Shown here in pieces: positions 1 through 25,293 of a stretch of 34,578 bases of DNA; the stretch's first letter is position 1; each line of letters opens with the position of its first letter. The stretch comes from Eubacteriales bacterium. GTDB lineage: Bacteria; Bacillota; Clostridia; Oscillospirales; CAG-382. The DNA lies in NCBI GenBank assembly GCA_045649365.1, contig JAZRPU010000073.1, forward strand, positions 1-34,578, read 5' to 3'. Below the pieces are notes generated by a model. It had not been told where the DNA came from, searched no databases, and saw only the letters and a program-made list of their open reading frames with translations. A program made the translations under genes and the position numbers.

Positions 1-564
1 TACTAAAACTACGTGATTAGGGCTATTCAAAGCATCTCCAGGCTGTAATGTGTTCGTTGCGCTGCTAACGGTTACAGCACCCATATTCTTGGATACATCA
101 GGAATAAAATACGTTGTTGTTCTTTCAATCCCCCACGCCCACGAAACGTATGAAGAACAGTCCGTTGTGTAATAAGGGGCTGAAGGGCCATCATAATAGC
201 TTCTTCCTGTGTAAAAAATACTCCCCGCAGTTGCGGCGGCATTAATAAACTCCTCCACAGTAGCATCATATCCAATATATTCTCCCGAATATATCGGCTG
301 TCCGTATGGAATATGATATGTATTTCCTTTCACAAAAGTACCCGACCAGCCCTCAACGGTTTGTTTTGCAACCCAGGTTATATTGTACATATAGTTTCCG
401 CGAGCAACTATATTCCTTTGATTTTGAGTGATTCCAACAGAATGAACAAAAACGTCTTCTAAAAAAACTTCAACGCTTTCACCCTTTACGCCAATGGGAA
501 AAGAATTGATTACAACAAGAACCAACAATAAAGATATAATCTTTTTAACAATGTCTTTTTTCAT
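1..564 (-). CDS. Secreted NlpC/P60-like cell-wall peptidase, 3' end runs off the window (absent from the ORF track)
   Basis: Manual translation from ATG at 564 (GGAGG RBS at 571-575) is open to base 1: MKKDIVKKIISLLLVLVVINSF signal peptide, then TDCSSYVSWAWG and LQPGDALNSPNHVVLV, matching the NlpC/P60 DCS and PGD...H motifs. Confidence 0.8.
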   Translation of the reverse strand, partial: MKKDIVKKIISLLLVLVVINSFPIGVKGESVEVFLEDVFVHSVGITQNQRNIVARGNYMYNITWVAKQTVEGWSGTFVKGNTYHIPYGQPIYSGEYIGYDATVEEFINAAATAGSIFYTGRSYYDGPSAPYYTTDCSSYVSWAWGIERTTTYFIPDVSKNMGAVTVSSATNTLQPGDALNSPNHVVLV

Positions 565-607
565 AATGCGCCTCCAAAATGTAATATTTTATCGGTCTTC
601 TTAATGT

Positions 608-636
608 ATTATATCACAAATTAACAATCAAATCAA
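608..636 (-). promoter_or_regulatory. Sigma-A promoter for the NlpC/P60 gene
   Basis: TTGATT-17bp-TATAAT with TG upstream of the -10. Confidence 0.65.
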
Positions 637-798
637 GATAAAAACAATCCCAATAGAAAACAGAGTTATAAAAATCGCAATTACGAGGAAAACTCTCCAA
701 ATAAAAATTAGCAAATGTGCAGGAATTTGAAATAGCTAACTGTCATCGATGCCTTGGCTCATGATAAAGCATCATACTTCTCACGGATACTTCCGCCC

Positions 799-860
799 CC
801 TCGAATCCCTTCCCGATAAAAACGAAAACAGACACCTCGAGGTGTCTGTTTCCGTTTTTG
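799..860. repeat. 62-bp direct repeat copy 1 (CTCGAATCCC plus palindromic hairpin)
   Basis: 59/62 identical to 1906-1967; palindrome core AAACAGACACCTCGAGGTGTCTGTTT. Confidence 0.95.
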
Positions 861-899
861 TATATGGGCTACAAAAAAGATATTTTAAGAAACAAATAA

Positions 900-1682
900 T
901 TATGTTTTTTCTCCTTCGTTAGCAGTAGTTTTATAAGCCTTGTTTTCTAAGTATGCAGAAAACTCCTGGGGATCCCCGTTAAAAACATTTACATCAATGT
1001 ATTTTTCTTTTCCGTTATACCCTTTGAGCCTTTCACGATTCGTATATTGCCAAAATGTCCATGCCCTTTCGTCATACATTTTAGGTTTTGAAATAACGTT
1101 TCTAATCCAAATATCGTATTCTTTATAGTCGTTGGATAAATACAGCTCATAAGACTTTTCTGTGGCATAAATAATAGGTTTTTGATTGTAATGCTCTTCC
1201 AACAAAACGAGCATTACCTTTAATTGTTTTTCTACATCTGCTCTGTCAGGTGGATTTTTTTCTTTATCACCGTAAAATTCCAAATCAATAACTGGTGGCA
1301 ACATTCCTTCAAATGGAGCAACTGTATTTATGAAATTTTCCGCCTGCGTCTTTCCTTCACTGTCATAGCTAAAAAAATGATAAGCTCCCACGGAAAGCGA
1401 AGTTTTTTGTGCCTCTTGAAAATTATAAGCAAAGTATTTATCCACAAAAGAACTTCCCTCGGTTGCCTTTATAAATGCAAAAGAAATTTTTTGTGACGAT
1501 AGAATATTCCAATCTATCTCTCCCTGATATGATGAAACATCGATACCTTTTATATCGTATTGGTAACTGGATATGCCGTTTAAAATGATTATGCCGTTCC
1601 AAACCAAAGCAAAAATAACAATACTAACGACTAATAATGCGGAAACTGCAATTAACATTATCTTAAGGAGTCTATTTTTCAA
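900..1682 (-). CDS. Glycoside hydrolase family 25 muramidase (lysozyme) with N-terminal membrane anchor
   Basis: GIDVSSYQG, KATEG, GAYHF, catalytic DLE, WQY and DVN motifs; hydrophobic N-terminus; TTG start. Confidence 0.93.
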   Translation of the reverse strand: MKNRLLKIMLIAVSALLVVSIVIFALVWNGIIILNGISSYQYDIKGIDVSSYQGEIDWNILSSQKISFAFIKATEGSSFVDKYFAYNFQEAQKTSLSVGAYHFFSYDSEGKTQAENFINTVAPFEGMLPPVIDLEFYGDKEKNPPDRADVEKQLKVMLVLLEEHYNQKPIIYATEKSYELYLSNDYKEYDIWIRNVISKPKMYDERAWTFWQYTNRERLKGYNGKEKYIDVNVFNGDPQEFSAYLENKAYKTTANEGEKT

Positions 1683-1702
1683 AATATCACCACCTTTTAT
1701 TC

Positions 1703-1731
1703 ATTATACCATACTTTTGTTTGTATTTCAA
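1703..1731 (-). promoter_or_regulatory. Sigma-A promoter inside the cassette
   Basis: TTGAAA-17bp-TATAAT with extended -10 TG. Confidence 0.7.
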
Positions 1732-1810
1732 TTCTTCGCCACAGATATGTTTCTTTTTTGTGAGAGTTCAAATCTAACTTGAGAAAAATATCTTTTTTGT
1801 AGCCCTTTGA

Positions 1811-1831
1811 TGGTGGAGACGGTAGGATTCG
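1811..1831 (-). repeat. Duplicated 3' end of tRNA-Ala (att-like)
   Basis: TGGTGGAGACGGTAGGATTCG matches 1966-1986 at 20/21, including the CCA end. Confidence 0.9.
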
Positions 1832-1905
1832 GTCTCATGGCTCGACGCCCTTCGGTCTTCCGCGGCTCTTGGCTTGCCACTGGCAAGTCAATTCACTACC
1901 GCTCA
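1832..1905. repeat. GC-rich REP-like palindromic insert
   Basis: Nested stems GCGG...CCGC around the hairpin CTTGCCA-C-TGGCAAG. Confidence 0.55.
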
Positions 1906-1967
1906 CCTCGAATCCCTTCCCGATAAAAACGGAAACAGACACCTCGAGGTGTCTGTTCTCGTTTTTG
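1906..1967. repeat. 62-bp direct repeat copy 2; its hairpin probably terminates the tRNA transcript
   Basis: 59/62 identical to 799-860; on the minus strand the hairpin follows the tRNA CCA directly and ends in a T-run. Confidence 0.9.
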
Positions 1968-2041
1968 GTGGAGACGGTGGGATTCGAACCCATGACCTAT
2001 GCGTTGCGAACGCATCGCTCTCCCAACTGAGCTACGCCCCC
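1966..2041 (-). tRNA. tRNA-Ala (anticodon CGC)
   Basis: 76-nt cloverleaf GGGGGCGTAGCTCAGTTGGGAGAGCG-ATGCG-TTCGCAA-CGCAT...GGGTTCGAATCCC...CGTCTCCACCA; G3:U70 alanine identity pair; encoded CCA. Confidence 0.97.
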
Positions 2042-2055
2042 GTTATTTTATTTTA

Positions 2056-2217
2056 AAATCTCAACGCTACATCGATGACCGAATACTATTTATTCATCGC
2101 TGAATATATACGACATTAGCCCTCCGCCTGCAATTTCGCGCCTCTACAAGAGCAAACCATCGAGTATTGTCTACATTTATTGGCTATATAAATACGATAT
2201 TGGCACTCCGCTAGGAG
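2056..2217 (-). ncRNA. Two tandem diverged copies of a candidate structured RNA motif in the tRNA spacer
   Basis: Copies 2130-2217 and 2056-2127 share GCGGA-NN-GCYAATRTCG...TCGATG...YGARATT and internal hairpins; a third copy lies at 29105-29210. Confidence 0.45.
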
Positions 2218-2291
2218 TGGAGCGAGTGACGGGAATCGAACCCGCGTAACCGGCTTGGGAAGCCGACACTCTACCATTGAGTTACACTCGC
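2218..2291 (-). tRNA. tRNA-Gly (anticodon CCC)
   Basis: 74-nt cloverleaf GCGAGTG...TCGGC-TTCCCAA-GCCGG...GGTTCGATTCC...CACTCGCTCCA; U73 discriminator. Confidence 0.97.
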
Positions 2292-2310
2292 ATATCACAC
2301 AGCATGTGAA

Positions 2311-2339
2311 ATTTTACCACATTACGCCTGATTTGTCAA
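2311..2339 (-). promoter_or_regulatory. Sigma-A promoter of the tRNA-Gly/tRNA-Ala operon
   Basis: TTGACA-17bp-TAAAAT with TG extension. Confidence 0.8.
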
Positions 2340-2376
2340 GTGCTAATAAAAAAATTAGCAGTTCCATTTTGTCTGT

Positions 2377-2419
2377 AAAGGCTGTTATAACGATTTATTA
2401 TTTCGTCATAGCAGCCTTT
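2377..2419 (-). terminator. Probable terminator hairpin downstream of sigK
   Basis: Imperfect inverted repeat AAAGGCTGTTATAACGA...TCGTCATAGCAGCCTTT. Confidence 0.55.
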
Positions 2420-2464
2420 TAAATCACTCATTTTAAATCTAAAACCCATTTACAATTACTTTGG

Positions 2465-3154
2465 CTATTCTTCATCAATCCCACAGCTTCTCATATATGC
2501 CTCTATCTTCTCCAACGCTGTTTTTTCTATACGCGACACGTAGGAACGGGAAATACCAAGTTGCTTTGCTACCTCACGTTGCGGAAGCTCTCCACCGCTT
2601 TTCAATCCGTACCGCTTTTCTATTATTACTCTTTCTCTCTCGTCGAGAACGTTTTCAATAGCCCGCATCATAACAGAAATTTTTATTGTTTTATCTACCG
2701 TTTCCAAAACGTTGTCATCTTCTGAAAGTATTTCCATGTATGTCAGCGGATTCCCGTCCTTATCCACATCAATACTGTCATTCATAGAAGTTTCATTGAC
2801 CAGCTTTTTTTGTGCTCTGAAATGCATTAATATTTCATTTTGAATGCATTTTCCCGCGTATGTCGCAAACCTTGCTCCTTTTTCCGCGTTAAAAGAATCA
2901 ATAGCCTTTATAAGCCCGATTGTACCTATTGATATTAAATCATCCTGGTCCTTTACTGTGGAATAATATTTTTTAACGATATGTGCCACAAGTCTTAAAT
3001 TGTGAATTATCAGCTTTTCCCTTGCTTTAGAATCTCCTTTCGACATTAATGAAAAATATTCTTTTTCTTCTTCTGTTGAAAGAGGGTCAGGGAACGAATT
3101 TGTCCCGTTCACTCTCAAAAACAGAAAAACAAACTTTAATAAAAATTGAAGCAT
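2465..3154 (-). CDS. sigK: Sporulation sigma factor pro-SigK
   Basis: NSFPDPLS, HNLRLVAHIVKKY, DLISIGTIGLIKAI, ATYAGKCIQNEILMHFR, QREVAKQLGISRSYVSRIEK; start moved to ATG 3154 after AGGAGG; hydrophobic pro-sequence. Confidence 0.9.
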   Translation of the reverse strand: MLQFLLKFVFLFLRVNGTNSFPDPLSTEEEKEYFSLMSKGDSKAREKLIIHNLRLVAHIVKKYYSTVKDQDDLISIGTIGLIKAIDSFNAEKGARFATYAGKCIQNEILMHFRAQKKLVNETSMNDSIDVDKDGNPLTYMEILSEDDNVLETVDKTIKISVMMRAIENVLDERERVIIEKRYGLKSGGELPQREVAKQLGISRSYVSRIEKTALEKIEAYMRSCGIDEE

Positions 3155-3226
3155 AACGCCCCTCCTGAATATATCTGATTTTATTATATTCAAAAGCGAG
3201 CCTAAAGTTTCCAATATATTTAAAAC

Positions 3227-3255
3227 AAAAAAACGGCTCATAAAAGCCGTTTTTT
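3227..3255 (-). terminator. Intrinsic terminator after putP
   Basis: AAAAAACGGCT-CATAAA-AGCCGTTTTTT. Confidence 0.75.
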
Positions 3256-3329
3256 GAATTTATATTTATCTTACAAAGGTAACTAAAGATAGTCTAACAC
3301 CTAAAGTTCCCTTTTTGCACTTTATATAA

Positions 3330-4934
3330 TTAATTGTTTTCTGTATCGTAAACTGTTCCCGCACGAACTGCCTCGAAATCCTCTTCGATTTCCTTTGAAG
3401 GCGCTTTGGTTGCAAGTGAAACAATAACAATAACGATAGATGAGAAAATGAACGCGGGCAAAAGCTCGTAAATTGCAAAAGCACCGCCCCATTTGCTGAT
3501 AACAAGCTTCCAAAGGAATACCATTCCGGCACCGCTTATCATACCTGCAATAGCACCTGGTTTGTTTACGCGCTTCCAAAACAATGAGAAGAGCATAAGA
3601 GGGCCAAACGTTGCACCGAATCCTGCCCATGCAAAAGAAACGATAGAGAAGATAACACTATCCTCATCAAGAGCAATAACAACGCCGATAAGAGTGAGCA
3701 CCAAAAGAGTAATTCTGGAAACAGTCATTACCTGTTTATCTGTAGCATCTTTCTTTACAACGCCTTGGAAAATGTTTTTGGAAAGCGCAGATGCCGCAAT
3801 AAGCAAATAAGAGTCAGAAGAGCTGATTGTAGCAGCAAGAATACCCGCCATAACAAATCCGGCCAAAAGAGGAGGCAAACAGTTTGTTGCAAGAATAATA
3901 AAGATATTCTCCGCTCCGCTCTTTGTAGCGAGAACTTCAGAGCCTTTAAGGTCAGAAACAGCAATTTGTCTTCCAACAATACCAATAAACACAGCAACAG
4001 CAAGAGAAATAACTACCCAAACCATTGCAATTCTACGGGAACGTTTCAATTCCTCTTCTTTACGAATAGCCATGAAACGAAGGAGAACTTGAGGCATTCC
4101 AAAATAACCAAGTCCCCATGCCATCATTGAAAATACAGTTAAAAGTCCATAAGGAGCAGCTTTTGATTCAAAAATAGGTTTAATTCCATCAAAAAGCTGT
4201 TTTCCTGTTTCGGCATCAGTCACAGGTTGTGCAAGTCCGAAAAATTCCAAAAATCCCGGAATGTTCTGTGCATTTTCGATAACTGAATTAATTCCACCCG
4301 CTTTAATGGTGCTTATTATAACGATAACCGTAAGAGCTATTAACATAACAATAGCTTGCATGAAGTCAGAAACACTTTCTGCAAGGAATCCGCCTAAAAT
4401 AGTGTAAAGCAAAACGAATGCCGCACCTAAAATAAGCATTGATTGATATGACGTTCCAAAAAGAGTTGAGAAAAGCTTTCCGCAAGTAACGAAACAGCTT
4501 GAAGCATAAACAGTAAAGAAAACAAGAATAAATGCAGCAGCAATGAGCATTATTGTCTTTTTCTTTTCGCGGAAACGATTTGAGAAAAATTCCGGCAAAG
4601 TGATAGAGTTGTTAGCACGAACACTATAACGGCGCAAGCGCTTTGAAACAATAAGCCAGTTAATATATGTACCTACCGCCAAGCCCAAAGCTGTCCAAAA
4701 CGCGTCAGCAAGACCGCACCAATAAGCAACACCCGGAAGTCCCATCAAAAGCCAACCGCTCATGTCAGAAGCCTCCGCACTCATTGCGGTTACCCATGGG
4801 CCGAGAGAACGGCCGCCTAAAAAATATTCTTCCGAATTTTTGTTTGCACGCTTTGCATAAAGCGCACCGATTACGATAACCACCGTCATATAGATGACCA
4901 TCGCAATTAAAATCTGTACCGTACTTTTATCCAC
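3330..4934 (-). CDS. putP: Sodium/proline symporter
   Basis: YFLGGRSLGPWVTAMSAEASDMSGWLLMGLPG, WGLGYFGMPQVLLRFMA, AWAGFGATFGP; probable GTG start at 4934 after AGGAGG. Confidence 0.9.
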   Translation of the reverse strand: MDKSTVQILIAMVIYMTVVIVIGALYAKRANKNSEEYFLGGRSLGPWVTAMSAEASDMSGWLLMGLPGVAYWCGLADAFWTALGLAVGTYINWLIVSKRLRRYSVRANNSITLPEFFSNRFREKKKTIMLIAAAFILVFFTVYASSCFVTCGKLFSTLFGTSYQSMLILGAAFVLLYTILGGFLAESVSDFMQAIVMLIALTVIVIISTIKAGGINSVIENAQNIPGFLEFFGLAQPVTDAETGKQLFDGIKPIFESKAAPYGLLTVFSMMAWGLGYFGMPQVLLRFMAIRKEEELKRSRRIAMVWVVISLAVAVFIGIVGRQIAVSDLKGSEVLATKSGAENIFIILATNCLPPLLAGFVMAGILAATISSSDSYLLIAASALSKNIFQGVVKKDATDKQVMTVSRITLLVLTLIGVVIALDEDSVIFSIVSFAWAGFGATFGPLMLFSLFWKRVNKPGAIAGMISGAGMVFLWKLVISKWGGAFAIYELLPAFIFSSIVIVIVSLATKAPSKEIEEDFEAVRAGTVYDTENN

Positions 4935-5040
4935 AGATTCTACCTCCTGCATTTTATTTTTTTCGCAGTTTTCAGGAAAATCGAATATTTATAAAACTTC
5001 AAAATAATAAATAAATATCCAATTTAAATCCAATGAAGAT

Positions 5041-5069
5041 ATAATACTAATTTTGCAAACATTTGTCAA
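5041..5069 (-). promoter_or_regulatory. Sigma-A promoter for putP
   Basis: TTGACA-17bp-TATTAT. Confidence 0.65.
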
Positions 5070-5219
5070 GTCTACCATTAGTTACTTTATAAAATATTTA
5101 CATTTTTAGGACTTTATAAGCTCTTTTTTGCAAAAAAAGATGGAGCCGCCTTCATCCATACAAAACGCAACTCCATTATTTATTGTTAGACAATTTTTTC
5201 AAATCAACTCTTCTGTCAA

Positions 5220-6104
5220 TTATCTTTTTAAAAATTTACTAATCAACCTCATAACAAAATCCAACGCATTAAACCTACGAGTCTTAATATCTATAACCTC
5301 AAAATCTTTTGACGAATTATAAGTATGCATTCCATCAAGAAAAATAGGTTTATCAAAGCTTAACTCATTGGGATAAAGTTCTTTTAGTTCAGATTCGTTA
5401 TACTCACCGTCTTTATTCATACAGCACTCATAAAAAACCAGTCCTTTACCATAGCCTCTGCCTGTATCACGGGAAATTTGAGCGGGTCTTACTGTTTTTC
5501 CCTCAAAACAAAACACATTTCCCGCAGGACGAGAACGAAGATTGTTCTTGCAAGTCACGGAAAAATCCTCACGATTCCCCGAAAAGTCAACCAACAATAA
5601 TTTTGGATTTTCCGAATCGCTCACTTCGTGAGTTAATGCAAGCTGCTCTTCAGACTTTGGAAAAGGCGTTGTATCAGCATATTTAACGTCTTTTCTGACA
5701 ATATGCTTTTCCGACCACTTTGTTGGCAATTGGATTGACTCATACACGGTTAAAACTTTTCCTTCGCCGGATTCCGGCATCATAAACATCTTACCATTCT
5801 TCTCGATTATACAAGGATACGACAAATGATAGTCTTCTTTCAGCAAAGGCTTCCATTTGCTTGTTTTGCCATTTTCTACTGTACAGAAACCTATAATTCC
5901 TTTTCTCGAAATATAGTCATACAACTCGGCAAAGATATATGCTTTATCTCCTCTTTCAACTATAAAAGGATCCGCTGCCCAATATCGAAAGTTATTTTTT
6001 ATTACGGTGAATTGCTTTTTGTTATCCTTAAGTATATCACCAGAGCTTCCTTTTCTGAAAGCAACATTCCAACTTTCTGCATAAATAAACGTATCTCGAA
6101 GCAT
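5220..6104 (-). CDS. Beta-propeller glycoside-hydrolase-like protein (GH32/43-like fold)
   Basis: WAADPF, HLSYP, MMPES, SRPAG, RPAQ and MHTYN motifs seen in propeller proteins of polysaccharide loci; ATG 6104 after GAGGTG. Confidence 0.6.
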   Translation of the reverse strand: MLRDTFIYAESWNVAFRKGSSGDILKDNKKQFTVIKNNFRYWAADPFIVERGDKAYIFAELYDYISRKGIIGFCTVENGKTSKWKPLLKEDYHLSYPCIIEKNGKMFMMPESGEGKVLTVYESIQLPTKWSEKHIVRKDVKYADTTPFPKSEEQLALTHEVSDSENPKLLLVDFSGNREDFSVTCKNNLRSRPAGNVFCFEGKTVRPAQISRDTGRGYGKGLVFYECCMNKDGEYNESELKELYPNELSFDKPIFLDGMHTYNSSKDFEVIDIKTRRFNALDFVMRLISKFLKR

Positions 6105-6234
6105 TTCACACCTCAATTTTACTATTCTAACTTTTATGAGCTGTTGTCATTAATAAAGCTTATGCTTATATTGAATGCAAATTTTGTTCTCAAAAAAGCA
6201 AAGCCGCCATTTTAAACATTTCAAACATTGGTTA

Positions 6235-7422
6235 CTATATTTTGCACGCCAGCTTCCAAAGCTCTATATTACCTTCAAGCATTCCCTTTTCAACATATTT
6301 GAGGGAATAGGATAAGCTATATTTTTCAGAAGGCTTATATTTCATCAGAAGTTCTCTTCCCAAAGAGAACAAAGCAAATAGCTCTTCCTCTTCCATGTAA
6401 ACAAAGTCGTTATAATAAAAAGAACCTAAATGTCTGAGAAGCAATTTGTAAAAAATAACGTCTTTAGGAAGTCCTAATCTTTCCGTTTCTTCAATACATC
6501 TCAAAAGCATCCAATAATTCTGAACGCTTCTTCTGCGAGCTTTTCCTTGAGTGTGAGAAAAGTTGTTTTCATACCAACGGTATTCGTATTTCACCTCGGG
6601 AACGTACTCAAAAGACTTGCACAAACGGAAAGCTAAAAACTGTATTATAGTGTCCTCGTACCAATAACCGGGGAAGAAACGAAGGTTTTCAAAAATTTCT
6701 CTTTTGTAAACCTTGCACCAAGGAAGTCCTGCAAAATTAAAAATATAATCTCCGTCTTTATATCCCATAAGATTGTAATCGGGATAAACGTTAGGCTTCA
6801 CATAATATATCTCGCCATTTCTTTCTTTGGAAAGATTGTGCGCACACATAACTATATCCCTGTTGTTTTTAATCGCGGTGGATACAAGGCATTCAACGAT
6901 ATCATCATGGACTGTATCGTCACAATCAACAAACATAAAGTATCTTCCCGCGGCATTATTCAATCCCGTGTTACGAGCCGCGCCGATTCCAGCGTTTTCC
7001 TGATGTATAACCTTTACGTTAGGTCTGCCTTTATATTTTTCCAAAATATCCTTTGCGGGTTTATCTGACCCGTCATCAACCAAAATAAGCTCATAGGTAT
7101 ATTGCGTTTTCTGATGGAGTATCGCTTCAATGGTACCCTCTATGACGTTTTCATAATTATAAATTGGCACTATAATAGAAAGGTCAATTTTATCATCCAC
7201 AGGTTGATTAATTATTTCAGCCTTTTCTGTAACGTAGGGATAAAGCCCCTCTACAATTTTCAGAGCCTTTTCTCTGTCCATCTCAACAATTCGTTTTTTG
7301 ATAAACAATTTTTTAAACCAAAATCTTAAACAAAAAGGGAAATAAGCCAGATTTGCCAAAATAACGCATATCCACTCTACAGGCAACTTTCTGTAGAAGA
7401 ACATATATAATCCTTGTTTCAT
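6235..7422 (-). CDS. Glycosyltransferase family 2
   Basis: SIIVPIYN, ILVDDGS, QENAGIGAARNTGL, FVDCDD, YED. Confidence 0.92.
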   Translation of the reverse strand: MKQGLYMFFYRKLPVEWICVILANLAYFPFCLRFWFKKLFIKKRIVEMDREKALKIVEGLYPYVTEKAEIINQPVDDKIDLSIIVPIYNYENVIEGTIEAILHQKTQYTYELILVDDGSDKPAKDILEKYKGRPNVKVIHQENAGIGAARNTGLNNAAGRYFMFVDCDDTVHDDIVECLVSTAIKNNRDIVMCAHNLSKERNGEIYYVKPNVYPDYNLMGYKDGDYIFNFAGLPWCKVYKREIFENLRFFPGYWYEDTIIQFLAFRLCKSFEYVPEVKYEYRWYENNFSHTQGKARRRSVQNYWMLLRCIEETERLGLPKDVIFYKLLLRHLGSFYYNDFVYMEEEELFALFSLGRELLMKYKPSEKYSLSYSLKYVEKGMLEGNIELWKLACKI

Positions 7423-7428
7423 GAAAAA

Positions 7429-7977
7429 TTACCTCAATTCTCTAAACAGGGGTTGTTTTTTATCCTTTTCTGAAAGCAAAACCGTCATATCATCTGTAAT
7501 GGGCCATTCTATTCCAATATCTTCATCATTCCAAAGCAATCCACCCTCATCTCCCGGATGGTAAAAATCAGTACATTTATAACAAAATTCTGCTGTATCT
7601 GATAAAACAAGGAATCCGTGAGCAAAGCCTTCGGGAATATAAAACTGCTTTTTGTTTTCATCGGAAAGTTCAATTCCAAACCATTCTCCATAGGTTTTGC
7701 TTTCCTTGCGCAAATCCACAGCCACATCAAAAACCGTCCCCTTGATAACTCTCACAAGCTTTCCTTGAGGATACTGCTTTTGAAAATGAAGGCCACGCAA
7801 AACTCCCTTTGAGCTCATGCTTTGATTATCCTGAACAAAAACCATGTCAAGACCAGCTTCTTCCATGTCTTTTTGGTTATATGTTTCCATGAAATATCCT
7901 CTGCTATCTCCATGAACAGCAGGCTCGATAATGCAAAGTCCTTCTATATGAGTTTTTGTTACCTTTATTTGTCCCAT
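7429..7977 (-). CDS. rmlC: dTDP-4-dehydrorhamnose 3,5-epimerase
   Basis: GDSRGYFMETY, VQDNQSMS, GVLRGLHFQ, FAHGF. Confidence 0.97.
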   Translation of the reverse strand: MGQIKVTKTHIEGLCIIEPAVHGDSRGYFMETYNQKDMEEAGLDMVFVQDNQSMSSKGVLRGLHFQKQYPQGKLVRVIKGTVFDVAVDLRKESKTYGEWFGIELSDENKKQFYIPEGFAHGFLVLSDTAEFCYKCTDFYHPGDEGGLLWNDEDIGIEWPITDDMTVLLSEKDKKQPLFRELR

Positions 7978-7978
7978 A

Positions 7979-8875
7979 TTATTTTACTCCGATTTCTTCT
8001 AAATATCTGCAAAGTGCATCTTTCCAATGTGGAAGAGGCTTAAAGCCTTGATTTTCTAATTTACTCTTATCAAGTCGGCTGTTGAAAGGTCTTTTTGCCT
8101 TTGAAATTCCGTATTCTTCAGTAGTCACAGGGGTGACAGCGGTTTTCATTCCCGCCTCTTTAAAAATTTCACATGCAAATTCGTACCAGCTTATATATCC
8201 GCCCTCATTCGTAGCGTGATAATAACCGTATTTTTTGCTTTCTCCCATATCCACAAGAAGACGAGCGAGGTCATAGGTATATGTAGGCGTTCCTATCTGG
8301 TCGGAAACAACTCTCAACGAATCGTATTTTTTTCCAAGATTCAACATTGTCTTTATGAAATTCTTTCCGTTTACGCCAAATACCCAAGCAATACGAACAA
8401 TAAAATACTTTTGGAGAATCTCACTGACCGCTTTTTCTCCATCAAGCTTACTTTGACCGTAAACGTTGATAGGAGCATATTCCTTACAATCTGCCTCCCA
8501 TGGGCACACACCATCACCGCTGAAAACGTAATCCGTGGAAATGTATATCATCTTACAATCCGTTTTTTTACACGCCAAAGCAATATTTTCTGTTCCTTCA
8601 ACGTTTATGGAGCGTACTTTTGATATGTTTTCCGAATCTTCAGCCAAATCAACAGCAGTCCATGCGGCACAATGAACTACAACGTCGGGAGAGATTGAGC
8701 TGATAGCTTTTTCCGAATCTTCTTTTTTTGTTATATCCAGCTTCAAATATGGGGCTTCAATTGCAGGGCAATCTTCAAGAATATCCGTTCCGACACATTC
8801 ATGGCCTCTTCTCAAAAGCTCCTTCATAACGTCATATCCAAGCTGTCCGCCAACGCCCGTCACTAAAAACTTCAT
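7979..8875 (-). CDS. rmlD: dTDP-4-dehydrorhamnose reductase
   Basis: VTGVGGQLG, HCAAWTAVD, ISTDYVF, YGQSK, DQIGTPT. Confidence 0.97.
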   Translation of the reverse strand: MKFLVTGVGGQLGYDVMKELLRRGHECVGTDILEDCPAIEAPYLKLDITKKEDSEKAISSISPDVVVHCAAWTAVDLAEDSENISKVRSINVEGTENIALACKKTDCKMIYISTDYVFSGDGVCPWEADCKEYAPINVYGQSKLDGEKAVSEILQKYFIVRIAWVFGVNGKNFIKTMLNLGKKYDSLRVVSDQIGTPTYTYDLARLLVDMGESKKYGYYHATNEGGYISWYEFACEIFKEAGMKTAVTPVTTEEYGISKAKRPFNSRLDKSKLENQGFKPLPHWKDALCRYLEEIGVK

Positions 8876-8884
8876 AATTATCCC

Positions 8885-9904
8885 TCAACGGTTTCCGTAC
8901 ATTTTTTCATAATAATTCTGATATTCACCTGAAATGATATTTTCCCACCAGGAACGGTTATCCAAATACCATTTTATTGTTTTTTTAATTCCATCCTCAA
9001 ATTTTGTTTCAGGCAACCAACCCAATTCATTATGTATTTTTGTTGGGTCTATAGCATATCTCAAATCATGACCTTTTCTGTCTGTAACGTAGGTTATAAG
9101 GCTTTCAGGTTTACATAACTCTTTGCAAATTATCTTTACAATTTCTATATTTTCTTTTTCGTTATGTCCACCAACGTTATAAACTTCGCCCACCTTACCA
9201 CCATGGATAATAAGGTCAATGGCCTTGCAATGGTCTTCAACGTAAAGCCAATCTCTTACGTTCTTTCCTTCCCCGTAAACAGGGAGCGGTTTATCGTTAA
9301 GTGCGTTCGCTATCATCAATGGAATGAGCTTTTCCGGGAAATGGTAAGGCCCATAGTTATTTGAGCAACGACTGATAGTAACAGGCAAACCGTATGTACG
9401 ATGATAAGCAAGAACAAGTAAATCAGCTGAAGCCTTGGATGAAGAATAAGGACTGCTTGTATGAAGGGGCGTTGTTTCTGTAAAAAACAAATCCTTTCTG
9501 TCCAAGGGAAGATCTCCATAAACTTCATCAGTAGAAACCTGATGATAACGGTCAATCCCATATTTTCTGCAAGCGTCAAGCAAAACTGACGTTCCGATTA
9601 TATTTGTTTTTAAAAAGATGTCTGGTTCCTCGATACTTCTGTCAACGTGGCTCTCTGCGGCAAAATTCACTACAACGTTTGGCTTCTCTTCTTCAAACAA
9701 AGAATAAACTGCTTCTCTATCACAGATATCTGCCTTTACAAATCTGAAATTCGGATTTTTCATTACAGCTTCCAAGGTGGAAAGGTTGCCTGCATAAGTA
9801 AGCTTATCCAAACAGATTATACGATAATTAGGATACTTTTTGAGCATGTGGAAAACAAAATTACTTCCAATAAATCCCGCTCCGCCTGTAACGATTATAT
9901 TCAT
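8885..9904 (-). CDS. rmlB: dTDP-glucose 4,6-dehydratase
   Basis: VTGGAGFIGSN, FAAESHVDRS, STDEVYG, YSSSK, FPEKLIP. Confidence 0.98.
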   Translation of the reverse strand: MNIIVTGGAGFIGSNFVFHMLKKYPNYRIICLDKLTYAGNLSTLEAVMKNPNFRFVKADICDREAVYSLFEEEKPNVVVNFAAESHVDRSIEEPDIFLKTNIIGTSVLLDACRKYGIDRYHQVSTDEVYGDLPLDRKDLFFTETTPLHTSSPYSSSKASADLLVLAYHRTYGLPVTISRCSNNYGPYHFPEKLIPLMIANALNDKPLPVYGEGKNVRDWLYVEDHCKAIDLIIHGGKVGEVYNVGGHNEKENIEIVKIICKELCKPESLITYVTDRKGHDLRYAIDPTKIHNELGWLPETKFEDGIKKTIKWYLDNRSWWENIISGEYQNYYEKMYGNR

Positions 9905-9915
9905 AATAACTTCCC

Positions 9916-10806
9916 CTATTTATCTATATATTTTCCATTCAATACGTCCATAAGATATTGTCCGTATTGATTTTTCTTAAGCTCTTCGTAAGCTTTCAAA
10001 ACGTCTTCTCTGCTTATCCACCCATTAAGATAAGCAATCTCTTCAAGACATGCAATCTTTCTATGTTGATGGGTTTCTATGTTTTTCACAAAATTGGTTG
10101 CATCCACAAGGCTTTCGTGTGTTCCTGTATCAAGCCATGTAAAGCCTTGCCCAAGAAGCTCAACATTCAACATTCCTTTTTCAAGGTATATTTTATTTAA
10201 ATCTGTTATTTCAAGTTCATTTCGCTTACTGGGTTTTAATCCCTTGGCGTATTCCACAACCTTATTATCATAAAAGTACAAGCCCGTAACACAATAATTT
10301 GATTTAGGCTTTTCGGGTTTTTCTTCGATGCTTATTGCTTTCCCATTTTTATCAAACTCAACGATTCCGAATCGTTCGGGGTCATCAACATAATACCCGA
10401 AAATAGTTGCTCCTCTGCCAGCTTCGGCTTTTTCAACAGCGTTCAAAAGACGCTTTCGCAAGCCATGTCCCGAAAAGATATTATCGCCCAAAACCATTGC
10501 TACAGTATCGTTACCGATAAATTCTTCACCAATAATAAACGCTTGCGCTAATCCGTCAGGGCTTTTTTGAACTGCATAACTCAAGCTTATGCCAAACTGC
10601 GTTCCATCTCCCAAAAGCTCTTCAAATCTGGGAGTATCTTGAGGAGTTGATATTATCAATATCTCCTTAATTCCCGAGCGCATCAAAACCGACAAAGGAT
10701 AATAAATCATCGGTTTGTCATAAACGGGTAATAGCTGCTTTGAAGTTACTTTTGTAAGTGGATAAAGTCTTGTTCCCGACCCGCCTGCAAGTATTATTCC
10801 TTTCAT
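9916..10806 (-). CDS. rmlA: Glucose-1-phosphate thymidylyltransferase
   Basis: [41 protein letters not shown]. Confidence 0.98.
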
Positions 10807-10881
10807 AATTACCCTCGTTTCATTTTTTGAATTTATATAATTTTTATTTTTTATAAAAATTATTTCTTTTCGACTAATAAC

Positions 10882-10910
10882 ATATTACAGCAAAAGTCAA
10901 AAAAAGTCAA
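10882..10910 (-). promoter_or_regulatory. Sigma-A-like promoter for the rml operon
   Basis: TTGACT-17bp-TAATAT. Confidence 0.5.
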
Positions 10911-10976
10911 TAGAATATTGATATTTTAAGACTAAAACAGCAAAATGTGATATACAAACATTAAATATAACAAAAC

Positions 10977-11010
10977 GCTGTCAACAGCTATGTCTTAAGC
11001 TATTGACAGC
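10977..11010 (-). terminator. Terminator after the acyltransferase gene
   Basis: GCTGTCAACAGCT...AGCTATTGACAGC hairpin followed by TTTT on the minus strand. Confidence 0.65.
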
Positions 11011-11017
11011 ATTTTAT

Positions 11018-12052
11018 TTATACAACGTATTTTTTCAAAACGGGAATATGATTGAATATTACAGAAACAATTAACGAAGCAATTATTGTTATTGCGGTAG
11101 CAATCAACAGAGCAACAGGAGGAAAATCTCCAAGCGTTTTCGAAATCCAAGGATGTATCATTGTTATTATTAAATCATGCACTAAATACATTCCAAAACT
11201 GTATTTCGAAATAGCAAGAATTATTTTTTTCCATTTTTGAGAAAAATTCACTTTGGAAATATAGTTTTTAGCAACAAGGAAAACTCCAACACATTCCAAT
11301 GTAACAGGAAGGAAAAAATGGCTGTAATAAAAGGGGGCGTTTTCGTTATTTTTGGTCAGCACCGTAATCACTATAGAACAAATACAACCCAAAGCTCCGC
11401 AAATAATCAAAGCAATATTTATTTTCTTTCCCAAATCAAACTTGCTTAAATAGTAGCCAAGCACAAAGAAAAAGGCGTAGTCAGCAAAAAAATTCAATCC
11501 TATTTCGTTAAAAACGTAACCCGAAACACCAGGAGCAATATTTCCCAAAGGTGACATGTTAAACGTAAAAACGCCTATTCCAAAAATTACTCCTAATACG
11601 AGAAAATATTCTGTTAATTTTTTATCCGCCGTAATCTTTCTGAGAAGCGGAGTTATCATATATAGTCCCACTATCATAAGCAAAAACCACATGTGATATC
11701 TTCCCATGATAACGCCTTCTAAAAAGAATATAGGTGTAGAATAATTATAAACAGCATAAACCACAGCCCAGAAAACAAAAGCGGTAACTATTCTCAAAAT
11801 ATTTTTTCCATACAGCTTTTTCATAGAAAGTTCTCTTGAATTATCAAGGAACAACGAGCCGCTTATCATAACGAATATAGGAACACTCCATCTCGTAATA
11901 CCCGAGCATATTAAAGAAAAATCTTCAGACCACGGTATAGCGGGATTTTCAGCAACACCAAGTTGATGAAAAAATATAACCGCCAACGTTGCTCCTATTC
12001 TTAATATATCAAGATACAACGTTCTTTTTCCTGTATTTATGTTGTTTCCCAT
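11018..12052 (-). CDS. Acyltransferase family 3 membrane O-acyltransferase
   Basis: YLDILR...VIFFH, VPIFVMISG, HMWFL, SFGMYLVH; about 10 TM helices. Confidence 0.88.
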   Translation of the reverse strand: MGNNINTGKRTLYLDILRIGATLAVIFFHQLGVAENPAIPWSEDFSLICSGITRWSVPIFVMISGSLFLDNSRELSMKKLYGKNILRIVTAFVFWAVVYAVYNYSTPIFFLEGVIMGRYHMWFLLMIVGLYMITPLLRKITADKKLTEYFLVLGVIFGIGVFTFNMSPLGNIAPGVSGYVFNEIGLNFFADYAFFFVLGYYLSKFDLGKKINIALIICGALGCICSIVITVLTKNNENAPFYYSHFFLPVTLECVGVFLVAKNYISKVNFSQKWKKIILAISKYSFGMYLVHDLIITMIHPWISKTLGDFPPVALLIATAITIIASLIVSVIFNHIPVLKKYVV

Positions 12053-24159: not shown

Positions 24160-25293
24160 TTATTTCGTTTGCAATAGTTTTTTTGATATTTCAACAACTT
24201 TATTACAAAAAACAGAAATTTCTTCTTCCGTGTTGGAATAGGTAATTCCCACTCTTATAGCCGATTCTGCCAAGCTACGTTCTAATCCGAAAGCTTTAAG
24301 AATTCTGTTTTCTTTTGCATGAGTCGAACAAGCAGAAGATGCGGAAACAAAAATCCCGTCAGCAGACAAGCTGTTTATAACCGTTTCGCTTTTAATTCCG
24401 GGAATAGAAAAATTAAGCACAGAACAAACAGATTTTTCGGGAAGATTAAGAACAACTCTTTCTCCCAAAGAATCAATAAGCTTTTGAGAAAGAATGTTTT
24501 TTAAACCAAGAATATGAGAATTTCTTTCTGATTTCTCATCATTCCAAGCTTTTACAGCGGCAGAAAACGCCATTATGCCAACGGTGTTTTCTGTTCCCGA
24601 CCGAAATCCGCTTTCTTGTCCACCGCCTTTTACAAAAGGCTCTATTTTCAGTCCCTTTTTCAGATAAAGACCGCCACAGCCTTTCAATCCCCCAATTTTA
24701 TGAGCAGATACAGAAGCCGCATCGCAGTATTTTGAAAAAGGTTCTGAAACCTTCATAAAGCTTTGGACACAATCGGAATGAAAAAGCGATCCGCAACCGC
24801 TTTCGTCAATTTCCTCCCTTATTTTCTCCAAATCGTAAAGCGCACCCGTTTCGTTATTTGCTTGCATCATAGTAACAAGACAAGTCTTTTGAGAAAGCGC
24901 CTTTTGAAGCATTTCAAAATCCAATTTTCCCGACACAGTTGGGATTCTTATTATCTCATAACCATTTTTCTCAAGATAAAGAAGAGGTTCTTCAACAGAG
25001 GGATGCTCCGAATCCGTCGTTACAATACGTTTTGAGTGACGGGAGTTTTTTTGTGCAAGTCCCAAAATGGCAGTATTATTACTTTCGCTCCCACCCGACG
25101 TGAAAAACAATTCGGCAGGTTGACATTTCATGGCAGAAGAAACGTTTTTTCTCGCCTCTCTCACCATAGAAGCAGCCACACCGCCAAGGGAGTGAGGAGA
25201 AGAAGGATTACCGAAATTTTCCATTGCAGATAATGCAGCCTCAACCGCTTTTGCATCGGGCTTTGTCGTGGATGAATTATCAAGATATATCAT
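24160..25293 (-). CDS. Cysteine desulfurase (IscS/NifS family)
   Basis: YLDNSSTT, GNPSS, FTSGGSES, EHPSV, NNETG, SAHK, RSGTEN, SASSACS; ATG 25293. Confidence 0.92.
   Translation of the reverse strand: MIYLDNSSTTKPDAKAVEAALSAMENFGNPSSPHSLGGVAASMVREARKNVSSAMKCQPAELFFTSGGSESNNTAILGLAQKNSRHSKRIVTTDSEHPSVEEPLLYLEKNGYEIIRIPTVSGKLDFEMLQKALSQKTCLVTMMQANNETGALYDLEKIREEIDESGCGSLFHSDCVQSFMKVSEPFSKYCDAASVSAHKIGGLKGCGGLYLKKGLKIEPFVKGGGQESGFRSGTENTVGIMAFSAAVKAWNDEKSERNSHILGLKNILSQKLIDSLGERVVLNLPEKSVCSVLNFSIPGIKSETVINSLSADGIFVSASSACSTHAKENRILKAFGLERSLAESAIRVGITYSNTEEEISVFCNKVVEISKKLLQTK

Follow-up and report, generated by a model that had tools for sequence, protein, structure and literature searches.

A lysozyme gene cassette behind a tRNA-like CCA end

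What places a single lysozyme gene, enclosed by a perfect inverted repeat and free of any transposase, exactly between a tRNA-like 3′ end and a transcription terminator? The question is raised by contig JAZRPU010000073.1 of an Eubacteriales bacterium (Oscillospirales, CAG-382; assembly GCA_045649365.1), analysed here over its stretch of 34,578 nucleotides (hereafter, the window). Near its start, a gene for a GH25 muramidase lies within a perfect 21-bp inverted repeat, GGGCTACAAAAAAGATATTTT at 866–886 and its exact reverse complement at 1785–1805, recovered both by reading the sequence and with a repeat finder. The 898 nt between the two arms hold one open reading frame (ORF), the GH25 gene, and one promoter-like site and nothing else, which confirms, together with the Pfam results, what a first-pass annotation of the window had described. 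With up to three mismatches allowed, GGGCTACAAAAAAGATATTTT has two matches in the window compared to 0.02 expected (100 shuffles, none with two). The block from the CCA to the second terminator copy (861–1810, 950 bp) is, on balance, probably a non-autonomous cargo cassette, one of a family docked between CCA ends and terminators and moved in trans by a site-specific enzyme. The cassette has a defined anatomy, belongs to a family, occurs in varied contexts, begins at an exact CCA junction and is shared between genomes at an identity well over the genome background.

Read along the minus strand, the locus runs tRNA-Gly(ccc), tRNA-Ala(cgc), a terminator, an element of ~110 nt, TCAAA, the 21-mer, the promoter, GH25, the inverted 21-mer, ATATA and a copy of the terminator (Table 1; the end on the tRNA side is called proximal, the other distal). 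The CCA of the intact tRNA-Ala abuts its terminator without a gap. A copy of the tRNA-Ala 3′ end, terminated by CCA, precedes the cassette (1839–1811, minus strand; 25 of 29 positions identical); it had been annotated as a bare duplication but is the 3′ end of the separate ~110-nt element, here called the tRNA-like element (TLE). Past the distal end, 860–799 (minus strand) is a 62-nt copy of 1967–1906 (59 of 62 identical), comprising the terminator and 19 nt. The arms stand 5 bp from the tRNA-Ala-like CCA end and 5 bp from the second terminator copy, both as first noted. Also in keeping with the first reading, no target duplication is visible at the cassette, which has TCAAA on one side and ATATA on the other and whose junction maps to CCA/A-run, and none was seen at the junctions read in relatives. 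The missing duplication, the inverted ends and the exact junction together favour a site-specific recombinase over a DDE transposase. The 25-nt stretch inward of the proximal 21-mer (minus strand) ends in GAACTCTCAC, the GH25 stop lies 13 nt from the distal 21-mer, and the GC content of the cassette is 32.5% vs. 38.2% in the window.

The GH25 protein matches PF01183 (Glyco_hydro_25) with an E-value of 1.8e-40 and 139.7 bits (cut-off 27) over residues 47–221 and profile positions 1–179 of 180. It has a hydrophobic N-terminal anchor, NCBIfam holds no name for it, and the cassette promoter is kept in relatives. A Pfam scan of the ORFs of window 1–5000 found no integrase gene.

In the proposed mechanism, DNA would dock between the 3′-CCA end of a tRNA, a transfer-messenger RNA (tmRNA) or a tRNA-like sequence and its usual rho-independent terminator. 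In the orientation of the gene, the anatomy would be the CCA, TCAAA, the core GGGCTAC-R-AAAAAGATAT with an inner half (...GAACTC), the promoter and the cargo, and then an inverted core, an ATAGAC-like linker and an A-run with the terminator hairpin. GH25 would be the cargo, expressed from its own predicted sigma-70 promoter. A site-specific enzyme acting in trans, with the inverted cores as its putative binding sites, would move or exchange the cassette as a whole, and the family would have three tiers, namely conjugative elements, cargo-only cassettes and non-coding units of ~300 bp.

The same cassette in different genomic contexts

Relatives of the GH25 gene were collected by a scan of one genome per species (best 80 of 177 confirmed places), and the eight closest loci (82–95% amino acid identity) were read (L, G and C numbers denote loci, genomes and contigs; L036 is contig G001:C206 and is counted once). 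Five of the eight (L034, L035, L036, L039, L040) have both an upstream core and an inverted downstream core, L037 has the upstream core only, L038 retains degenerate remnants of both and L041 has no core. In a further locus (L046; 73% amino acid identity), the proximal end is complete and the distal end truncated. Nucleotide identity to the window cassette is 95.3% in L034, 95.8% in L035, 93.0% in L036, 89.1% in L037, 86.0% in L038, 85.1% in L039 and 84.5% in L040, and homology in all seven loci stops at window 854–886 on one side and 1744–1815 on the other.

Outside these limits the genomes are far less alike. Window 2300–12000 is only 67–73% identical to G001, a genome of the same genus that carries the 93% cassette copy, and the rest of the window is 75–82% identical to four other genomes of the genus. 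The 9 kbp around the G001 copy share with this genome only the cassette, the TLE, a tRNA and short repeats. The attachment point also varies, being tRNA-Leu(tag) in L035 and L039, a partial tRNA in L040, a full tRNA in L046, and a tRNA-like end in the window and in L034, with none in L036. The first-pass description of a transposase-free cassette was upheld, and the unit is discrete and occurs in different contexts. The evidence fits a cargo-only member of the family that moved between species.

Contigs from four animal-gut sequencing runs span 857–1801 at 88–99% identity. Runs found by a search contained at most 0.22 of the sampled words, and the four that were aligned, at 88% likeness, gave only short contigs. 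No contig in the four runs bridged the cassette ends into the window flanks (683–804 was uncovered and 1842–1902 was covered in run X1 only), and these short contigs, which drop rare variants, listed no joint that skips 861–1810 or switches strand.

Origin of the perfect inverted repeat

The perfect 21-bp repeat had been taken for the terminus of the element, a view that the relatives contradict, given that five of the eight closest GH25 loci keep two direct core copies ~90 bp apart. In six loci (L034, L035, L036, L039, L040, L046), the proximal end consists of the CCA, TCAAA, GGGCTACAAAAAAGATAT-AGCC (copy C, self-folding), a terminator hairpin and ~35 nt, followed by (A/G)ACGTACAAAAAAGATATTTTT (copy B′) and the inner half. 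The ancestral proximal end would accordingly have carried hairpin C, then a terminator, then the direct core copy B′ with its inner half. The window aligns to these relatives in two pieces (1801–854 and 1815/1813–1788) and is without the ~90 bp between direct repeats TACAAAAAAGATAT that the relatives keep. The window has thus undergone a ~90-bp deletion that brought the GGGC of copy C up against the TTTT of copy B′ and removed the intervening terminator, and this fusion gave rise to the perfect 21-bp identity with the distal copy. A similar fusion occurs in L037, which is not the closest relative of the window; the deletion therefore probably happened more than once.

Hairpin C has the stem GGGCNNN/NNNGCCC around the loop AAAAAAGAT, and its stem changes in pairs (GGGCTAC/GTAGCCC, GGGCAAT/ATTGCCC, GGGCGAT/ATCGCC and GGGCTAT/ATAGCC). 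The two cassette ends differ past the core, with the hairpin and terminator on one side only.

A fixed junction behind many tRNAs

Of 401 genomes sampled from the order, 18 contain the junction pattern CATCAAAGGGCTAC... at up to two mismatches (20 matches; reversed control, 0); this order sample overlaps with the family sample of 164 genomes used below. Directly 3′ of a tRNA called by ARAGORN, with the A of CCA as the last base, lie 16 of the 24 distinct proximal-type sites collected, and the tRNAs belong to 12 anticodon classes (Leu tag, gag; Ala cgc; Pro tgg, ggg; Tyr; Met; Gln ttg, ctg; Trp; Ser cga, gct). The repeated adjacency to tRNA CCA ends that the first reading anticipated is thus present. 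The other eight sites comprise two tRNA-looking sequences with GCA or TCA before TCAAA, two TLEs, and the rest without a tRNA. The GCA- and TCA-ended sequences suggest that the CA may belong to the inserted DNA. The proximal end is nearly unchanged across four families of the order and, in many assemblies, is found within a few hundred bases of a contig end.

The TLE-attached proximal sites are those of the window and of L115, the latter beside a tmRNA-like 3′ end. Because these cassettes follow the CCA of a TLE instead of a true tRNA, the placing machinery would seem to read a tRNA-like 3′ end. Reverse-transcriptase priming on the tRNA CCA was considered as an inference from the junction and rejected, since the CCA is encoded in the genome anyway (30 of 31 tRNA/tmRNA genes).

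The TLE itself is conserved in G001–G004, with a tandem pair in G002. A profile built from five copies found five places in the window's own genome, of which three follow a called tRNA and terminator (Ala, which is the copy of the window; Ser; and Glu). The other places are C163:4381–4486, C227:3772–3862, C24:9726–9814 and C60:12971–13057, and a TLE also follows tRNA-Gln on C18. The conserved core reads ...GGTAGTGAAT-hairpin-AGAGCCG...GACCGAG-hairpin-GAGAGC..., with paired substitutions in the two internal hairpins. In the three copies that follow a tRNA, the arms are locus-specific, the 5′ arm complementing and the 3′ arm copying the neighbouring tRNA from the T-arm to the CCA. The C60 copy has 20 nt identical to the tRNA 3′ end, and the terminator is repeated there too. 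No Rfam family matched the TLE at E-values up to 10.

Other cargo between the same ends

Inverted-repeat pairs enclosing different passengers, which the first reading had named as support, were found; their cargo is mainly DNA methylase genes, besides restriction-modification and Pfam-negative cargo. L114 (G317:C51) encloses N6_Mtase and Methylase_S (type I specificity subunit) genes, and L115 (G189:C8) a gene for a 722-aa protein without a Pfam match. An 826-aa N6_Mtase is encoded after tRNA-Trp in L149 (G221:C14), and the same gene lies after tRNA-Ala in L218, a metagenome contig. L162 (G423:C44) encodes a 421-aa protein without a Pfam match between two distal-type ends, with a 41-nt terminator direct repeat. 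Cargo runs from the proximal to the distal end in all 11 repeat-bounded cassettes.

These cassettes bear on the reading first proposed, an IS-derived mobile insertion cassette (IS, insertion sequence) whose ends would be recognised by the IS1595-like DDE transposase of an autonomous copy. Mobile insertion cassettes, of which the MIC231 type is an example, derive from IS elements and carry passenger genes but no transposase. They exist in print and share with the window block the short inverted ends around passenger genes, the missing transposase, the several contexts and the presumed mobilisation in trans. An rve-type transposase gene also lies 1.9 kb inward of a single distal core copy in L155, where the contig ends inside the gene. 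The likeness ends there: the window cassette and the junctions of its relatives show no target duplication, the family and order surveys and the metagenome scan yielded no matching IS, the ends are asymmetric past the core, the cassettes always sit between a CCA and a terminator, and the one autonomous relative encountered is conjugative, not an IS. No core pair encloses a DDE gene in the 164 family and 401 order genomes (overlapping) or in five metagenome contigs. Nothing supports the IS1595-type assignment, 0 of 11 cassettes hold a transposase and target duplications are missing; an IS origin appears improbable.

The constant gene orientation also bears on an inverton, in which an invertase would flip 887–1784 and switch GH25 expression or read-through of the tRNA operon. 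Perfect arms are what active inversion or gene conversion would maintain, and inverted sites would invert, not excise, under a site-specific recombinase. However, 0 of 11 cassettes are flipped, the promoter is internal, so a flip would not switch the gene off, the arms of the G001 copy have diverged (15 of 21 identical), and the perfect identity in the window is explained by the C/B′ fusion. With a constant orientation and an internal promoter, an inverton is very hard to credit. A related idea, that the two ends are inversion products (the distal one without the inner half, the proximal one without the canonical outer flank), was dropped because relatives have the inner half at both ends and the gene orientation is constant.

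Genes near single distal copies encode an MmeI-type enzyme, an Eco57I-like methylase, a TOTE-type primase-helicase-PLD protein, Fic and TnpV, as well as sigma-factor-like and leucine-rich-repeat proteins. Two such loci have defence-type cargo. At L122:2789–7039 (G121:C26), a single distal core adjoins genes for the TOTE-type AEP primase-helicase-PLD protein, a helix-turn-helix (HTH) protein and DUF6036, and at L181:1024–5695 (G189:C1) one adjoins HTH_17-Fic and a complete MmeI-type enzyme.

A conjugative relative and candidate enzymes

The proximal end also opens a conjugative element of at least 38 kb, reaching to the contig end, at tRNA-Tyr in G443 (L144 and L145, G443:C1:243400–282245), and a related element lies at tRNA-Met in G472 (L146, G472:C28). 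The element contains a group II intron and encodes ArdA together with DNA methylases of the C5 and N6 types and, at the cell surface, a thioester/SpaA adhesin with a sortase; its transfer genes include those for TrbL, a VirB4-like ATPase, a MobL relaxase and a coupling protein, and it also encodes a Toprim protein. The expected autonomous copy with the same ends exists in the sense that this element shares the tRNA-proximal end, but no copy with a DDE transposase was found. In G340 and G295 of the same genus, the tRNA-Tyr CCA lies directly at its terminator, an unoccupied site, and G383 has a diverged element at the same tRNA-Tyr place. The prediction of an empty site in relatives holds for this large element at the junction of CCA and terminator, but not for the window locus, where no clean empty allele was found.

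A search of five genomes recovered the coupling protein in G443 only. The far flank of the G443 element, sought by means of the G340 empty site, gave one matching contig (G443:C23), which has no core. Large serine recombinases were considered as the enzyme, but they show no consistent co-location with the core and are left as a candidate class only. A phage origin was also rejected, the exact 21-mer having no match in a viral contig collection. At L164:300–700 (G214:C107), a unit of the Gut-1 type described below directly adjoins a gene for a large serine recombinase at its 3′ end, and the frame of this gene ends ...GGTGCACCA TGA; the unit again follows CCA and provides the stop codon of the recombinase gene.

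The core motif and Gut-1 RNA

When 40 relatives were searched at the DNA level, window 855–886 had many short matches (90–97% identical) outside its own genus and family. Wherever such loci were fetched, the core stands in a recurring frame, namely a variable terminator hairpin, TTTT, GTCTAT, GGGCTAC(A/G)AAAAAGATATTTT and then ~30 nt to GAATTCGAACTC. The first reading had called for further copies of the 21-mer. The window's own assembly (71.77% complete, 316 contigs) has only the same two sites, but at up to two mismatches the 21-mer occurs in 56 of 164 family genomes (reversed control pattern, 9 matches), mostly as single copies, and an 18-mer at up to one mismatch in 73 of 401 order genomes (reversed control, 8 matches). 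No Rfam family matched the core.

Forty core places were fetched, of which ~30 had at least 700 nt of inward sequence. The core is directed at a tRNA or tmRNA 3′ end 230–350 nt away in 20 of these ~30 informative distal loci, and the space between contains a conserved terminator and arrays of small hairpins with heptamer spacers (e.g., ATGAAAT, GTGATAT). The hairpin arrays match the Rfam family Gut-1 (RF01706) with 73.6 bits in L031, 69.3 in L019, 63.9 in L020 and 52.2 in L030 (threshold 50), beside weaker matches; the window itself has no Gut-1 match. Non-coding units of ~300 bp, composed of a terminator, Gut-1-type hairpin arrays, the inner half and the core, are the commonest members of the family and can be repeated in tandem after a single tRNA. 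Examples are L031:3110–3282 and, in the window's own genome, C309 after tRNA-Leu at 24541–24623. The arrays often have two convergent halves, and their heptamers are genome-specific (ATGAAAT, GTGATAT, GTGAAAT, ATGATGT), a layout that would suit a protein-binding (sponge-like) RNA. Gut-1 is presented in passages of its 2010 description as a likely non-coding RNA from human-gut sequences only (PMC2864571). A search of further literature by name found it in only one other paper, on structure-prediction training data.

The breadth of these sites raises the possibility, which we put forward tentatively and hold less probable than not, that the core marks a hitherto undescribed site-specific system for the 3′ ends of tRNA-shaped genes in general, with one enzyme and a three-tier family that includes Gut-1. 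Its targets would include tRNAs of 12 or more anticodon classes as well as tmRNA-adjacent copies and the TLE, with DNA placed exactly between CCA and terminator. One enzyme, perhaps carried on conjugative members, would serve conjugative elements, cargo cassettes of 1–3.5 kb (lysozyme, methylases and restriction systems, unknown proteins) and the ~300-bp units; transcripts of the latter would be the orphan Gut-1 RNAs, making Gut-1 part of a mobile element. If so, the tRNA flanks in these gut bacteria would be general docks for cassettes.

Regulatory punctuation or a moving cassette

The same core data can be read without a dedicated enzyme. The core and its inner half would be a static promoter or operator and terminator-associated signal, used behind tRNA genes and ahead of accessory genes, and cassettes would spread by RecA-mediated homologous exchange in the conserved flanks (tRNA, core, terminator) at a post-tRNA hot spot. 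We regard this reading, the main rival, as rather improbable, though well short of dismissal. It accommodates a core that is directional, mostly single and usually pointed at a tRNA or tmRNA across Gut-1-like arrays, and also the A/T-rich tract of the core region, which has a possible -35/-10 pair and from which genes run inward in L181, L168 and L185. The C/B′ deletion would be an ordinary repeat-mediated event. The alternative stays alive because terminator direct repeats of 41–62 nt surround three cassettes (window, L115, L162), the pattern expected from one crossover within the terminator. It does not, however, account for the junction of CCA and TCAAA, which is exact at 12 anticodon classes where tRNA homology cannot place it, nor for proximal ends that are near-identical in four families. 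The spacer and the near-palindrome GAATTCGAACTC show more conservation than a sigma-70 promoter calls for, and the covariation in hairpin C suggests a binding site that is structured or has dyad symmetry.

Several results weigh against a cassette moved by a site-specific enzyme. Single core copies are the rule, and the window holds the only close inverted pair among the 164 family genomes at up to two mismatches (the order survey added two more). Nothing shows activity in this genome, because its assembly has no other core copy. Neither a transposase nor a recombinase domain occurs in any of the 11 repeat-bounded cassettes or in the window near the cassette. A large serine recombinase gene adjoins one distal copy only (L164); in G017, G121 and G120 no contig with the motif has such a gene, and G430, with its six core copies, has none at all. 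Neither the right end of the conjugative element nor an integrase for it was recovered; the search covered the large-serine-recombinase and tyrosine-integrase families in five genomes. Because the terminator repeats are long, Campbell-type homologous events fit as well as site-specific ones. With regard to empty alleles of the window locus, G004 and G003 have the TLE without a cassette but with differing flanks; for the G221 methylase cassette, the same-genus genomes G293, G242 and G394 gave no clean one, as homology returns 240 nt past the cassette and the tRNA side differs, in G293 over the whole tRNA-proximal region. Finally, the estimated contamination of G001 is 5%, and its cassette contig could therefore be foreign to that genome.

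If a dedicated enzyme does move these cassettes, uncultured gut Clostridia would have a compact trade in single accessory genes at tRNA flanks, covering cell-wall hydrolases, methylases and restriction systems and other defence genes. The target rule, any tRNA-like CCA end, would be wider than that of classical tRNA-specific integrases, and Gut-1 RNA would gain a genomic home and a testable role. If the core is only a shared regulatory signal, it would still be a useful marker of post-tRNA hot spots of accessory genes in the order.

Comparison with known systems

A classical tRNA-integrating element is specific for a single tRNA and, once inserted, has a direct repeat of that tRNA's 3′ end at its far border. 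Elements that target tRNAs include cargo-only satellites; tycheposons are an example (bioRxiv 10.1101/2020.12.28.424599). The cassettes resemble tycheposon-type islands in carrying cargo at tRNA 3′ ends, in the partial tRNA copies and in having integrase-less members; no integrase of the tyrosine type was found inside or beside them (ORFs of window 1–5000 and the cassettes). They differ in that the distal border consists of core, linker and terminator with no tRNA fragment, and in lying exactly behind the CCA of 12 classes, whereas the neighbouring TLE does have the classical direct repeat.

Large serine recombinases act on attP half-sites that are inverted, with a 2-bp crossover, which gives inverted ends and no duplication; they usually use one attB, not many tRNAs. 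The cassettes share with the corresponding elements the inverted ends, the missing target duplication and the precise junction, and their joined ends would be dyad-symmetric. The many tRNA targets and the presence of such a gene at one locus only set them apart.

The dif (pdif) modules of Acinetobacter plasmids are described, in passages of three reports, as accessory-gene modules between inverse XerC/XerD sites (PMC6449649, PMC13141974, PMC12907356). The likeness concerns architecture only, i.e., no recombinase of their own, short sites in inverse orientation and many contexts. Unlike these modules, the cassettes are chromosomal, one side is always a tRNA-like CCA end, and by eye the core has no evident 11-6-11 layout. 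In architecture, the cassettes appear to resemble dif modules more closely than mobile insertion cassettes, and judged by these comparisons they seem to fail the defining features of mobile insertion cassettes, dif modules and tRNA islands alike. The literature on Gut-1, mobile insertion cassettes, dif modules and tycheposons yielded no description of cassettes or conjugative elements exactly behind the CCA of many tRNAs, and we do not claim that they are unpublished.

Feature coordinates and neighbouring sequences

Table 1 Features of the cassette locus in the window
Feature	Position	Strand	Basis
tRNA-Gly(ccc)	2291–2218	-	tRNA gene call
tRNA-Ala(cgc), intact, CCA encoded	1966–2041	-	tRNA gene call; 63.2 bits
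First terminator hairpin, directly 3′ of the tRNA-Ala CCA; model of the unoccupied junction	1925–1965	-	repeat finder, terminator scan
TLE, ~110 nt, structured, non-coding; 5′ end pairs with its tRNA-Ala 3′-end copy	1811–1924	-	
TCAAA linker, from core to CCA end in all proximal junctions seen	1806–1810	-	
Proximal core copy, a fusion of direct copies C and B′	1785–1805	-	two-piece alignment
Inner half of proximal end, TCTCAAGTTAGATTTGAACTCTCAC, homologous to the ...GAACTC... half beside the core elsewhere	1760–1784	-	
Sigma-70-type promoter, TTGAAA-17-TGgTATAAT	1703–1731	-	11/12 match, TG extension
GH25 muramidase cargo gene, 260 aa	900–1682	-	ORF and PF01183
Distal core copy (copy A), inward-pointing, without the ~30-nt inner half present elsewhere	866–886	+	
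Linker ATATA (-), GTATAT with the next base (+); local form of GTCTAT; consensus ttttttGtctatGGGCTAC	861–865	-	
Second tRNA-Ala terminator copy (A-run, 11-bp stem, T-run), closing the GH25 transcript on the minus strand	818–860	.	terminator-like 826–851
19-nt copy of the TLE 5′ start; outer part of direct repeat 799–860 / 1906–1967 (95%)	799–817	-	
Degenerate second TLE copy	798–~730	-	sequence reading

On either side of the locus, the minus strand encodes, at 1–564, a secreted protein that runs off the contig end and has a faint likeness to the RipC peptidoglycan hydrolase (E-value 0.0097, far under the cut-off) and, at 2465–3241, a sigma-70-family factor of 258 aa with regions 2 and 4. In G004, tandem repeats expand the tRNA-Ala/tRNA-Gly spacer (L006:900–1350, G004:C7). 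Some of the repeated units end in ...attagccgtccgctaggacc, others form a series resembling ttttcttttatacg, and the window spacer has neither. In G001, ~44 nt at the start of contig C206 (L033:11–54) match C101, C22, C167, C260, C117, C223 and C128 of the window's own genome at 95–100%, several of them at contig ends, and apparently represent a dispersed repeat.

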